Below are positions 36,001 to 42,000 of a stretch of 64,000 nt of DNA, one piece after another. The position numbers were made by a program. Positions within the stretch are counted from its first letter, which is position 1. Each line of letters starts with the position of its first letter. The stretch is from an uncultured Acidobacteriota bacterium (lineage in GTDB: Bacteria > Acidobacteriota > Thermoanaerobaculia > Gp7-AA8): the NCBI GenBank assembly GCA_963822445.1, contig CAWGHO010000002.1, forward strand, positions 1,573,787-1,637,786, written 5' to 3'.

Positions 36001-39000
36001 CGCGGCGCGAAACAGAACAACCTCAAGAACCTCGATGTCGAGTTCCCGCTCGGCGTGTTCATCGCCGTGACCGGCGTGAGCGGCTCGGGGAAATCGACGC
36101 TCGTCAACGACATCCTCTACAAGGCGCTGTCGAAGCATTTCTACGACGCGATCGACACGCCGGGCGAGCACGATCGCATCGATGGGCTGGAACTGATCGA
36201 CAAGGTCATCGACATCGATCAGTCGCCGATCGGACGCACGCCGCGCTCGAATCCCGCGACGTACACGCAGCTCTTCGGCGAGATCCGCAATCTGATGTCG
36301 GCCACTCCGGAAGCGCGCATGCGCGGATATGGACCGGGGCGTTTCTCCTTCAACGTGAAGGGCGGCCGCTGCGAGGCGTGCAAGGGCGACGGGCAGATCA
36401 AGATCGAGATGCACTTCATGCCCGACATCTACGTGAAGTGCGACGTCTGCGGCGGCAAGCGCTACAACCGCGAGACGCTCGAGGTGAAGTACAAGGGCTA
36501 CTCGATCGCCGAGATCCTGGACATGACCGTCGAGCAGTCGATCGACGTGTTCCGCAACGTCCCGCGCATCTTCAACATCCTGCACACCCTCGATGAAGTG
36601 GGCCTCGGCTACATCACCCTCGGCCAGTCCTCGACGACGCTCTCCGGCGGTGAAGCGCAACGCGTGAAACTGGCAAAAGAGCTCGCGAAACGCGCCACGG
36701 GGAAGACGCTCTACATCCTCGACGAGCCGACCACCGGCCTGCATTTCGACGACGTGTCCAAGCTCCTCCACCTGATGCACGGCCTCGTCGATCGCGGGAA
36801 CACAGTGGTGGTGATCGAGCACAACCTCGACGTCGTCAAAACCGCCGACCACGTCATCGACCTCGGCCCCGAAGGCGGCGACGGCGGCGGCCGCGTCATC
36901 GCCTGCGGCACCCCCGAGCAGGTCGCCAAAACCAAAGGCAGCCCCACGGCGCTCTACCTGAAAAAGATGCTCGCGAAGGAATCCGTCCTGCGGCTTACGT
37001 AGCGTACGGCGGGCGTCCCGCCCGCCCCCGCCGGGCGTTTCGCCCGGCGGTACCCTCTCCGGATAACTCCCCACAAACGGCCAGTCGATCAATCCCGCGT
37101 TCGCCGGATTCCCCACCACATACTCAATCGTCGCCGCCAGCTCGCGCGAATCACGCACGACCCGGTTGTAGTAATCCTCCCGCCAGAACGCGCCAGCTCG
37201 CCCCAACGCGGCATTCGCCTGCTTCGCTGTGAACGACTTCCAGCTGTGAACCACGCGTTCGAGTTGCACGACACCTATCAACACCGCATGCACATGATTC
37301 GGCATCACGCACCACGCCAGTAGTCGATACCGCTGCTCATCGAAGTGAGTAATGGCGCTCGCGACAATCTGCGCGATCCGCGGGTCGCGCATGGAGCACG
37401 AGCCATGAGCATGATCGAGTGATTCGCCGATCCGCGCGTCCACCCATTGCCGAATCGCGATCTTCTCGGCGGGCGTAAGGTCGCCACGGCTGTTCCGAAT
37501 CAGTGCAACTTGCGCAGCAGCTTCGTCCTGAATCTGTTGATGCACCTGCCGCGGAAGAGCATCGAACAGGTTGAACGTCACAAACTGAATCCCATGTTCG
37601 ACGTCCCAATGCGGCAGCCGATTGCGCTTGTGAACTGTGACTTGGCCAAGATCGAATTTCATAGCCATCCGAGGCTACCTCGGTCCCTGCGTACGGCGGG
37701 CGTCCCGCCCGCCTACCGCCGGGCTTCCAGCCCGGCAGTACTCATAAATCCACGCAACGTAGAACCAGCGCCGGGCGACACGCCCGGCGCGTAGCGGGCG
37801 GGACGCCCGCCCTACGTGCGAGTATTCGCGGATGACCCGCCTCTTCCTCCTATCCCCCGCCAACCTCAATGGCCTTCGCGCGAAGATGGTCACTTCGCCG
37901 CGGGCTAAGTTCGAGCTGGCGGTGCAGTACCGGTCGGAGGGTGGCGTACCCATCGGCGACGCGTTCGCGTTCATGTCCTCGCTCTACTTTCGCGGGAAGA
38001 TTGCGTATGCGCGTCGGTTCGCGGTGCTTTCGCCGGTCATCGGGGGCGACGGCATCTTCATCATCACCTCGGGGTACGGACTCGTTCCACCCGACTGGCG
38101 GCTCAACGAAGAACGCATGAAAAAGATGAAGAAGATCGACGTCGACGCCGCGACGCGCAGCTACACGAAGCCGCTCAAAGAACACGCCGAGCTGCTGAAG
38201 AAAGCGCTCGAAGACGACGCGGAGGTCGTTCTCCTCGGCAGCATCGCCACCGGCAAGTACGTGGACGTGCTTCGTCCGATCCTTGGCCCGCACCTGCGGT
38301 TCCCAAAGCTCTTCGCCGGCCTTGGCGACATGGCCAGGGGCGGATTGATGCTCCGCGCGGCGCGTGCTGGCAAAGAGCTCGAATACACGACTCTCGACGC
38401 GCCACGCCATCGCGCTCCGGGCACGAGCGGAAAAATGCCGAAAATAGAATGAAGCGAGTGGTCATCCCCACCGACACGAACGAAGTGATCCTGAAGTTCG
38501 GGCCGCGCGAAGTCCGCCTCACGAACCTCAACAAACCGTTCTGGAAGAAGCTCGGCATCGCCAAGCGCGACCTGCTGCAGTACTACGCCGACGTTTCGCC
38601 GTGGCTCGTCCCGCACGTCGCCGGGCGGGCCATGGTCATGAAGCGGTATCCGAATGGTGCCGAGGGCGATTTCTTCTACATGAAGCGCGCGCCGGAGCCG
38701 CGGCCGGCGTGGATCGACATCTGCCCGATTCAGCACGAGGAGATGATCCACTTCCCGATCGTCCAGGACCTCCCCTCGCTGCTCTGGCTGATCAACCTCG
38801 GCTGCATCGATCTCAACCCCTGGTACGCACGCTGCGACGACACCGATCGCCCCGACTTTCTGCACTTCGATCTCGATCCCGGCCCCGGCGCGGACTTCGA
38901 GAAGGTTCGACAGTGGCGCTGCACGTCCGCGACATCCTCGGCGCGCTGAACATGCCCACCTATCCGAAGACCACCGGGTCGAAGGGCATTCACGTCTACA

Positions 39001-42000
39001 TTCCCATCGTCCGCGGCCCGCTGCAGAAGGAAGTGTGGACGTTCGCGAAGGCCATCGCCATCGAGCTCGAATCGCGCCATCCCGATGTGATCACCGCCGA
39101 ATACCGCAAGGTGAAGCGGCCGCACGGGCGCGTGCTCGTCGACTACAACCAGAACGCGTGGGGGCGCACCCTCGCGTCGATCTACTCCGTCCGGCCGACA
39201 CCGTTCGCGGGCGTGTCGATGCCGGTGACGTGGGAGGAGATCGAACGCGGTGTGAAGATCGATGACTTCCGCATCGACAACGCCATCGCCCGCCTCAACG
39301 ACGTCGGCGATCTCTGGAAGCCGGTCGTCGCGAAGACGAAGAGAGTGAATCTGTACAAGGTATTCAAGAAATGACTTTGCCTCTCGCACCGCCCTATCCG
39401 CCGATGGAGGCGAAACGGGTCGACAAAATCCCGGCCGGCGACCACTGGCTGTTCGAGCCGAAGTGGGACGGCTTTCGCGCGATCGTCTTCCGCGACGGCG
39501 ACGACATCTCCATTCAATCGAAGGCCGGCCAGCCGCTGGCGCGTTACTTTCCGGAGATCGTCGACGCAATCCGCTCGCTGAAGCAGAAGGAGCTCGTGCT
39601 CGATGGCGAGATCGTCGTGCCCGTCGACGGCGTCCTTTCGTTCGATCATCTGCTGCAGCGCATTCATCCCGCCGAATCGCGGATCAAGAAGCTCGCGGCG
39701 CAGACGCCGTCGCACTACTACATCTTCGACATCCTGGCGTTGAAGACGAAGGACTTCACCGCTCTGCCGATCGAAGAGCGCCGCGAGAAACTCGACGCGT
39801 TTTTCGAAGGGGTCGATCACGAACTGCTGCATCTCTCGCCGGCGACAACGGACCGCAAGATCGCCGTGGACTGGTTCGACAAGTTCGGCTCCCTCGGACT
39901 CGACGGCGTGATGGCCAAGCGCCTCGGCGAGCGGTATCACTCCGGCGATCGCGAAGGCATGGTCAAGGTCAAACACCTCAAGACCGCCGATTGCGTGGTC
40001 GGCGGTTTTCGCTACGGCGAAGGAACGAAGAGCGTCGGCTCGCTCCTCCTCGGCCTCTACGACGATGAAGGACGGCTCGTGTACATCGGCCACACCTCGT
40101 CGATCAAGAAAACGGAGCGCGATGCGCTGACGAAGAAGCTCGAAGCGCTTCGCGGCGAAAACGTGTTCGAGGTGCGCGTTCCCGGCGGACCAAGCCGCTG
40201 GGCGACGGAGAAGAGCGGCGAGTGGGAGCCGGTGAAGCCGACGCTGGTCTGCGAGGTCGAGTTCGACTACTTCTCGCAGGGCCGCTTCCGCCACGGCTCG
40301 AAATTCCTCCGCTGGCGGCCGGACAAAGATCCGAAACAGTGCACGATGGAGCAGGTCCTGCCGCCGAAAGCGAAAGGAAAGACCTTGAAGGGGATGTTCT
40401 GAGCGGCGTGAAAAGGCTCCTGGTTTTCCTGACGCTGTTCGCAGCCTCCGCCGCGTCCGCGCAAACGGTCCGCATCACGGAAAAGCCCGCAGGTCTCGTC
40501 GCCGGAACGCTCATCGTCCCCGTTGTCGCCACCGAACCGGTGGAGAAGCTCGTGTTCACCGTGAACGGCGCGAAGTGGGCGGAGGTGAACGGGCGGACGA
40601 TGAACGTGCAGGCCAACGTCGGCTTCTACATCCGCCGCCTGCGCATGCGCGCAACCGGGTACGACGCGCAGGGGAACGCGGTCGGTTTCGACGAGGTGGT
40701 GGTCAATGATCCGCGACCGCCATTCCGCGTCCGGCTGCAGGCGCCGCCGCAGTGGCCCGAAACGGGAACGATCGAGCTGCACGCGAACGTGACCCGTCCG
40801 GCGGAGATCCGCATCGCCGGCGTCGATTTCTTCGTCGGCGAAGAGAAAGTCGGGAGCGACGACGCGGCACCATACAGCGTTAGCGTGGACACGACGAAGT
40901 TCCCCGGCGCGATCTACGCGCGGGTCGTTGCACGTGCGACGAGTGCCGAGGAGTCGAATGATGTTTTCTTCTTCGGCGATCGTGCGCGGGAGCAGATCGA
41001 CGTCACCGTGCAGCAGATTCCGCTGTCGATCGCGCAGGGAACGACGCCGCTGCGCGCGGAGCACCTCACGCTCCTCGACAACGGCGCGCCGCGAAAGATC
41101 GAGAATCTCGTCGCCGCGAGCGATCAGCCGCTGCATGTGATTCTGCTGATCGATTACTCCGAGAGCATGCTCGAGGAATTGCCGGTGGTGAAGGCGGCCG
41201 CGAAGCAGTTCGCGAAGGCGCTGCTGCGGCCGCAGGATCGGATCGCGGTGGTGGGCTTCAATCAGAAGACGTTCTGGTTGACCGGCTACACGAACGATTG
41301 GAACGGCGTGGCCCAGGCCGTCGATCGCGTGCAGCCGATCGGCGAAACGCATCTGTACGACAGCGTGGTGGAGATGTTGTACGAGCTGCAGAAAACGCCC
41401 GGCCGCCATGCGCTGGTCGTGCTGACGGACGGCGTCGATCAGGGCAGCCGCTTCAAGCTCGAGCACCTCGTGCATTACGCGCGCTACGCCGGCGTGCCGG
41501 TCTATCCGATCGTGAAGAACAAATCGCTGTCGCGCTGGATGAAGCTCGGCGTGGGGCGTTTGCAGGCGCGGCGCCTCGCGCGGATCGCCGAAGAGACCGG
41601 CGCGACATACTTCATCATCCAGGCCGAGCGCGAGCTCCCGGCGGTGTACGCGCGGCTGGCGAATGAGCTCCGCCAGCAATATCTGGTCGTCTTTCACTCC
41701 GAGGCGTCGATTCCGGACGAGTGGCGGGCGCTGAAGATCACGTCGAGTGGCGGACACCAGTTGCGGATTCCGCGCGGGTATTTCCCGTGATGGAGTGCGG
41801 CGGCTCTGCCGCCGCACTCCATCCGGCACAGACCGTGAAACCTGTACGAGCGTCGTGCACCAACCGGGCTCGCCCCTTTATCCCGAGGCGCAAAAGCGCC
41901 ACCGCATTCACCGCGGTCTCGTGACCGAGCGGCAGGAGCACATCTTCGAGTGGATCGCGGTCATCGTCGTGCTGCTCTACCTCACGGCGTGGGTGGCGGC

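Follow-up and report, generated by a model that had tools for sequence, protein, structure and literature searches.

The DNA considered here is a 64,000-nucleotide (nt) stretch, called the window below, of contig CAWGHO010000002.1 in assembly GCA_963822445.1 (1,573,787-1,637,786, forward strand), which comes from an uncultured Acidobacteriota bacterium (Thermoanaerobaculia, Gp7-AA8). Within the window, three open reading frames (ORFs) lie on the same strand and are chained via ATGA overlaps at exactly 38449-38452 and 39371-39374. The first, ORF-A, encodes a small basic protein; the second encodes a stand-alone primase-polymerase (PrimPol), whose reading frame is broken by one missing base; and the third encodes a DNA ligase. 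The same ORFs and the same overlaps had been described in an earlier reading of this DNA (the original prediction). The features of the locus are as follows:

37832..38452, + strand: ORF-A, 206 aa, very basic, of an unnamed family; first gene of the operon, with a stop that overlaps the PrimPol start
38449..39374, + strand: stand-alone primase-polymerase (AEP; LigD_Prim-Pol, Prim-PolC-like), present in two frames (38449..38949 plus 38601..39374); 308 aa with one C restored
38909..38910, + strand: site of the one-base deletion (C missing), placed by orthologue alignment and by the frame signal
39371..40402, + strand: LigC-type ATP-dependent DNA ligase, 343 aa, with a start that overlaps the PrimPol stop

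The two frames of PrimPol share the profile LigD_Prim-Pol (PF21686) between them, the first matching positions 2-120 (E 1e-34) and the second positions 122-254 (E 2e-41). The halves jointly cover 2-254 of the profile, and the AEP motifs FDLD, SKGIH, and VDYNQN are visible in the frame-corrected translation. When an intact orthologue of 308 aa (from L009; related loci are given as L numbers) is compared with the PDB, the top matches are the M. smegmatis Prim-PolC structures 5op0 and 6sa0 (E 5e-54), followed more weakly by the M. tuberculosis LigD PolDom (2iru, E 2e-41) and the P. aeruginosa LigD polymerase (2fao, E 4e-26). In the ligase, Pfam finds only DNA_ligase_A_M (PF01068) and DNA_ligase_A_C (PF04679), with no fused polymerase (POL) or phosphoesterase (PE) domain, and the KxDG adenylation motif reads EPKWDG. 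Residues 1-332 of the ligase align with positions 1-337 of the 350 in the NCBIfam equivalog NF006078/PRK08224, with a score of 450.1 bits against a cut-off of 296; we take PRK08224 to be the model that is named ligC in CDD. However, the ligase reaches neither the LigD ligase-domain model TIGR02779 (189.1 vs a cut-off of 227.75) nor TIGR02776 (176.9 vs 373.2). Since the ligase passes PRK08224 and fails TIGR02779, and since the polymerase is closest to Prim-PolC, the two genes constitute a LigC/Prim-PolC module rather than a split LigD.

The label of a split LigD for non-homologous end joining (NHEJ), which the original prediction had attached to these genes, is consequently not the best one. 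A search for ku and for the LigD phosphoesterase had been suggested along with it; carried out within the window, it found neither. No PE-domain match is present in ORF-A, PrimPol, the ligase, or 20 other ORFs of the window that were scanned, and tblastn detects no Ku match in the 64-kb window or in 79 of 80 related loci, although the test, with M. tuberculosis Ku as the query, is an imperfect one.

In mycobacteria, the LigC/Prim-PolC complex (Plocinski et al. 2017, PMC5663958; Brissett et al. 2020, PMC7442782) functions in excision and short-gap repair, where it fills short 5'-phosphorylated gaps, with ribonucleoside triphosphates preferred, and seals gaps downstream of Fpg and of 3'-end-cleaning nucleases (PMC5663958). 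Removal of a 3'-phosphate in this pathway needs a separate nuclease, and in some mycobacterial species LigC/Prim-PolC is co-transcribed with fpg (PMC5663958). The window resembles this system in combining within one operon an AEP polymerase and an ATP-dependent ligase that both stand alone, and in having excision-repair genes nearby (uvrA and fpg in the window; in mycobacteria, fpg, polA, and uvrB). It is unlike the mycobacterial system in its gene order, in its host, a member of the Thermoanaerobaculia, and in the coupled third gene, ORF-A, which has not been reported in mycobacteria, where the extra gene is sometimes fpg. With LigD (PE-POL-LIG), which works with Ku, the locus shares homologous POL and LIG modules and the three-part logic of end processing, polymerization, and ligation. 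However, the genes here are separate, the ligase falls below the LigD cut-off, PE and Ku are not matched in the window, and ORF-A is an alpha/beta protein without the His-rich signature of the PE domain. Thus, as judged by its sequence relationships, the PrimPol and ligase pair is the known LigC/Prim-PolC gap-repair module and, taken by itself, a further case of a known kind.

ORF-A is a different matter. It is coding by its third-position GC content (~0.82) and by its thousands of conserved homologues. About 8,000 close homologues, mainly from Thermoanaerobaculia and other Acidobacteriota, are all unnamed or "hypothetical", and at E up to 1e-3 the relatives form 1,360 clusters at 50% identity. 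ORF-A has no significant match in Pfam, NCBIfam, PADLOC, or PHROGs (sub-threshold noise only), profile searches of PDB sequences with the family alignments A1 and A3 return nothing relevant, and a similarity in sequence or fold to the Ku core was looked for and not found. These results agree with the earlier view that the first gene is an unknown, distinct from both Ku and the LigD phosphoesterase. Its sole Pfam match, to a nucleotidyltransferase (PF01909, NTP_transf_2), was rejected: it scores 13.2 bits vs 21 (E 0.12), spans 28 residues, and lacks a DxD after the GS. A tblastn search against 72,556 plasmids and 50,697 phages gives no match, which argues that ORF-A is not a mobile-element or defence gene. 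Our search of the literature found no description of ORF-A, or of an unknown domain associated with PrimPol, LigD, or Pnk.

The ORF-A family is strongly basic throughout (median isoelectric point ~10), and the window protein has a net charge of about +12. Conserved motifs include F-L-L-S-P-A...G-x-R-A, S-x-L-Y-F-R-G-K-x-x-Y-A, G-L, L-L-G-S-x-A-x-x-K-Y, F-P, and G-x-G-D-M-S-R-G-x-L-L-L. The invariant polar residues are S8, S49, Y52, K56, Y59, and R169; no Asp, Glu, His, or Cys is invariant in the family. As conserved metal ligands are absent, a DNA-binding or recruiting subunit, or else a metal-independent enzyme, is likelier than a classical phosphoesterase. One homologue of 552 aa (P0222) carries a C-terminal fusion to DUF7790 (PF25046, E 4e-34), a domain of unknown function.

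The surroundings of ORF-A were compared in 80 species-representative genomes that carry a homologue, 70 of which have at least 1.2 kb of downstream sequence. A PrimPol gene is found within the flank of ORF-A in 41 of the 80; downstream on the same strand and within 3.5 kb, it is present in half of those with sufficient sequence (35/70). Over the 36 PrimPol ORFs that pass the filters, the gap between the two genes has a median of about 30 nt. This pairing is seen in Thermoanaerobaculia, Vicinamibacteria, Nitrospirota (L041), and Methylomirabilota (L079), while a metagenome-assembled genome (MAG) of the Proteobacteria (L055) also has PrimPol in the flank, but about 3 kb upstream of ORF-A. The genes that frame the pair differ: uvrA on one side and VWA/peptidase M15 genes on the other in one class, yebC-ruvA-ruvB-fabH and queA in another, and still others elsewhere. 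In L004, two unrelated genes are inserted between ORF-A and PrimPol-LigC, yet ORF-A and PrimPol are both retained; in L001, the ligase is absent. The linkage to ruvAB in Vicinamibacteria was considered as a functional sign and given little weight, since the synteny is real but fabH and a membrane protein intervene. Another arrangement, without PrimPol, occurs in one Thermoanaerobaculia subgroup (L038-L049). There, the ORF-A homologue comes after a large PAS-GGDEF-EAL protein and before two ORFs, one small and lipoprotein-like and the other esterase-like, and a gene that looks DUF885-like as judged by eye, with no repair genes nearby.

A second and independent partner of ORF-A is a polynucleotide kinase. 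Among the ten longest family members, four are fused to an AAA_33 P-loop kinase, which is N-terminal in two and C-terminal in two, and whose best solved relatives are two kinase domains, those of mammalian PNKP (E 2.5e-12) and of C. thermocellum Pnkp. In L080 and L086, this kinase has a gene of its own immediately after ORF-A. In L086, an Acidobacteriota MAG, positions 809-9092 hold an imuB-dnaE2 fusion (1,643 aa, with IMS, PHP, and Pol III alpha domains), PrimPol, LigC, the ORF-A homologue, and the Pnk-like kinase; this cluster looks like a compact damage-tolerance and repair island. The combination of ORF-A with a kinase is a two-module architecture that resembles the kinase plus phosphatase of PNKP-type enzymes (mammalian PNKP, bacterial Pnkp). 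However, in place of a phosphatase of the HAD or metallophosphoesterase type, the kinase here is joined to a protein without conserved metal ligands, and in the window no gene for a kinase adjoins ORF-A. Taken together, the linkage to PrimPol, the kinase fusions and adjacency, and the L086 cluster tie ORF-A to DNA damage and nucleic-acid ends. ORF-A represents a family that has not been described before, and its conserved association is new.

The AlphaFold2 (AF2) model of ORF-A is a confident one (pLDDT 93.7, pTM 0.89). Its best match, which is weak, is E. coli YaaA (DUF328/UPF0246; PDB 5caj), and Foldseek finds nothing below E 0.16 in the PDB. The YaaA fold, known as the "cantaloupe" fold, is an alpha/beta wedge that carries a basic cleft. 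Between ORF-A and E. coli YaaA, five short motifs are co-linear with similar spacing: FLLSPAN with ILISPAK, LYFRGKIAY with LAFKGDVY, IITSGYGLVPPD with MLSGLYGVLRPLD, VVLLGSIATGKY with VVINLASDEY, and GDMARGGLML with KKARGLMSRF. This correspondence was judged by eye and is a lead rather than a test. The YaaA/DUF328 profile (PF03883) has no match among 54 ORF-A family members even at E up to 10, and hhalign of the family profile against the single E. coli YaaA sequence gives a probability below 1% in either local or global mode.

A related domain, DUF6884 (PF21818), gives weak Pfam matches in 4 of the 54 members, with a best E of 0.024, and in one member the match is co-linear over 100 residues (E 0.24). 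All of these miss the gathering score, and by a wide margin; member P0262, for example, scores 12 bits against a cut-off of 30. In addition, neither CxxxK nor LSAxxG, the motifs of DUF6884, is evident in ORF-A, and it has no conserved Cys. According to the Pfam curators, DUF6884 is a distant relation of YaaA and has a positively charged, DNA-binding cleft, and the B. subtilis DUF6884 protein YfjM is enriched on abasic-site and ribonucleotide baits (PMC11701544; PMC10220248). YaaA itself co-purifies with double-stranded DNA and limits peroxide-linked DNA damage (PMC4834066). On balance, ORF-A is somewhat more likely than not to belong to the YaaA/DUF328-DUF6884 superfamily.

The operon is surrounded by other repair genes, with uvrA directly upstream and a Fpg/Nei glycosylase beside an Lhr-type helicase about 5-10 kb downstream, an arrangement that is conserved in related Thermoanaerobaculia. 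The neighbouring features are:

34156..37002, + strand: uvrA, conserved in Thermoanaerobaculia as the upstream neighbour of ORF-A
37002..37816, - strand: IS200-like Y1 transposase gene (RAYT-type), start at 37668, between uvrA and ORF-A
40408-43006: gene for a secreted VWA-domain protein, with a start 6 nt past the LigC stop, then a Peptidase_M15_2-like gene
45449..46267, - strand: Fpg/Nei-family DNA glycosylase (Fapy_DNA_glyco, H2TH, zinc finger)
~46260-50950, - strand: Lhr-type DEAD/DEAH helicase gene, ~1,550 aa, in many frames

In the window, fpg lies about 5 kb from LigC and directly beside the Lhr-type gene; the fpg-lhr pair occupies the same relative position in the related Thermoanaerobaculia loci L013, L016, L019, L026, L035, and L048. 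The VWA and peptidase M15-like pair follows PrimPol or LigC in most of the Thermoanaerobaculia relatives; its presence near LigC probably reflects synteny without a functional link. The RAYT-type ORF has 567 codons without a stop and runs antisense into uvrA. It is flanked by GC-rich palindromes (37002-37053 and 37689-37816) that resemble repetitive extragenic palindromic (REP) sequences, the palindrome motif being enriched, and the syntenic gene in L008 and L009 matches PF01797 weakly.

The break in PrimPol can be placed precisely. Alignment with four intact orthologues (L001, L004, L009, L010) shows GTTCG-ACAG in the window vs GTnCGCACC, a one-base deletion; once a C is restored between 38909 and 38910, GTT CG^A CAG becomes GTT CGC ACA GTG (V-R-T-V). 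The phase of third-codon-position GC switches at ~38915 with no gap, and the missing base lies within 5 nt of the single-base indel that the original prediction had put at about that position. AEP motifs I (FDLD) and II (SKGIH) lie on opposite sides of the break, so that the two fragments could not each be active. All close orthologues that were recovered are in frame, both the four above and the 24 sequences of the conservation comparison. Across 20 orthologues, 149 positions are invariant, and the frame-corrected PrimPol has no private substitution at any of them (controls 0-6). Programmed frameshifting was considered and rejected, as it would need a -1 shift, the sequence GAG AAG GTT CGA contains no X_XXY_YYZ slippery heptamer, and the orthologues are all in frame. 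In another long-contig MAG (MFD05176, L087), the PrimPol beside ORF-A (8641-9547) is also frameshifted, at about residue 88, a site that differs from that of the window.

A codon-position hidden Markov model scan of the window for further frameshifts was noisy, but it flagged the Lhr region, and alignment then confirmed the breaks. Compared with five intact orthologues, the Lhr-type gene contains at least 12 one-base indels and two small multi-base insertions, with the indels clustered at 50721-49406 and 47531-47166 and none in 47905-49401. The frame-corrected Lhr has 3 private changes at 640 sites that are invariant in 47 orthologues, a value that compares with 3-13 in the 11 highest-scoring of these 47 intact sequences. 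Many indels without an excess of substitutions are unlike pseudogene ageing and point to consensus errors in this 2.5-Mb contig. For Lhr, this suggests local consensus errors of the assembly rather than decay, and the PrimPol frameshift, too, is quite likely an artefact of the assembled consensus and not the mark of a pseudogene. Hence the original prediction that the polymerase gene is frameshifted holds for the assembled sequence but probably not for the biology of the organism.

The role that we propose for ORF-A derives from its linkages, its fusions, its charge, and its pattern of conservation. ORF-A, the Prim-PolC-like polymerase, and LigC would make up one translationally coupled operon for the repair of single-strand gaps and nicks, and the three proteins would form one unit. 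ORF-A would recognize the lesion or broken end, which might be an abasic site, a ribonucleotide, a gap, or a phosphate-bearing 3' or 5' terminus. It would then either hand the site to the polymerase and ligase or clean the end in a metal-independent manner, for example as a lysine-dependent apurinic/apyrimidinic (AP) or deoxyribose phosphate (dRP) lyase acting through K56. By homology and by analogy with mycobacteria, the polymerase would fill 1-3-nt gaps that have a 5' phosphate, and LigC would seal the nick. In some lineages, as the kinase fusions suggest, 5'-OH ends could be healed within the same complex. ORF-A is thus most likely a DNA lesion- or end-binding, and possibly end-processing, subunit of the pathway. 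We consider it probable that this reading holds as a whole, that is, that the genes form a LigC-type operon for the repair of gaps and nicks in which ORF-A is an unnamed third component, probably a remote YaaA/DUF328-DUF6884 relative, and that the deletion is a consensus error. A stronger version is possible but rather doubtful: ORF-A would found a new family of DNA-end- or lesion-processing enzymes, such as a metal-independent AP/5'-dRP lyase or a 3'-end cleaner with an invariant Lys56/Ser/Tyr/Arg pocket, and Prim-PolC, LigC, ORF-A, and, in certain lineages, a kinase of the Pnk type would form a self-contained machine for the repair of single-strand breaks and abasic sites.

Several observations weigh against the gap-repair reading. 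LigC adjoins ORF-A in only 15 of the 80 genomes, half of the ORF-A genomes have no adjoining PrimPol and show unrelated neighbours (a permease, a GGDEF/EAL protein, peptidases), much of the proximity to uvrA and ruvAB is inherited synteny of a single class in which unrelated genes intervene, and ORF-A has no significant sequence match that links it to any function. One might suppose that ORF-A has nothing to do with DNA repair and that its adjacency to PrimPol is simply inherited gene order; the half of the homologues that lack a PrimPol neighbour, the lack of a family assignment, and the fact that many linked loci come from one phylum, Acidobacteriota, would fit. We regard this as unlikely, since ORF-A and PrimPol stay adjacent when the flanking genes change and in other phyla, the fusions to polynucleotide kinase arose independently at the N and C termini, L086 joins ORF-A to imuB-dnaE2, PrimPol, LigC, and the kinase, and the family is basic throughout. 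Somewhat less probable still is a catalytic 3'-end healer, analogous to the LigD PE domain or the PNKP phosphatase, that strips 3'-phosphates or blocking groups before PrimPol extends the end. ORF-A does hold the gene position and the logic of PE in PE-POL-LIG, its fusion or adjacency to a kinase-only Pnk domain mirrors the joining of phosphatase and kinase in PNKP, and the mycobacterial pathway needs a separate nuclease for the 3'-phosphate (PMC5663958), but the absence of conserved metal ligands favours a binding subunit or a metal-independent enzyme. The original prediction that ORF-A is an accessory NHEJ factor has fared well in one half: the accessory idea is strongly supported by the linkage to PrimPol across phyla and contexts and by the kinase fusions and adjacency. 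The NHEJ half, in which a split LigD would serve Ku-dependent joining with ORF-A as, for example, a Ku substitute or end-bridging protein, seems improbable. In its favour, both enzymes share homology with domains of LigD, operons with stand-alone LigD-like genes are already known (PMC5663958), and in one relative (L091) a Ku-like gene lies 6 kb away from ORF-A. Nevertheless, the ligase scores as LigC, the polymerase is nearer to Prim-PolC than to LigD PolDom, the Ku searches, within the limits of the M. tuberculosis query, came up empty in the window and in nearly all related loci, and the neighbours are the excision-repair and damage-tolerance genes uvrA, fpg, and imuB-dnaE2.

The other element of the gap-repair reading that has to be weighed is the frameshift. 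A real deletion would mean that PrimPol has been inactivated, and very recently, or that its two fragments still assemble. The indels of the window are concentrated in one gene and away from homopolymers, which is odd for random consensus error; the PrimPol deletion site itself is no homopolymer, most long genes of the window are intact, so that errors are not everywhere, and the Lhr-type gene could equally be a genuine pseudogene. Against this stand the lack of excess substitutions at invariant sites in both corrected genes, the number of Lhr indels without the substitution decay that usually accompanies pseudogene ageing, the separation of catalytic motifs I and II onto different fragments, and the intact state of 24 of 24 close orthologues in the comparison. 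A genuine inactivation could have occurred, but we consider it much the less probable explanation. The frameshift also carries a caution for annotation, in that the contig contains local indel errors and its "pseudogenes" should not be taken at face value.

To our knowledge, mycobacteria are the only bacteria in which the LigC/Prim-PolC pathway has been described, and there, separate base excision repair enzymes recognize the lesions and clean the ends. As a conserved, coupled, and kinase-joined third gene, ORF-A would be a missing component of this pathway in many uncultured soil bacteria. For genome annotation, it represents a family of more than 1,300 clusters at 50% identity that has no model, and for biochemistry it is a concrete and easily testable candidate, being one small soluble protein. 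It could also help to explain how YaaA-like proteins act on DNA, a question that dates from 2011. If the stronger version is true, it would offer a biochemical handle on the unexplained YaaA/DUF328-DUF6884 superfamily, and the repair machine would be widespread in the soil phyla Acidobacteriota, Nitrospirota, Methylomirabilota, Gemmatimonadota, and Verrucomicrobiota.

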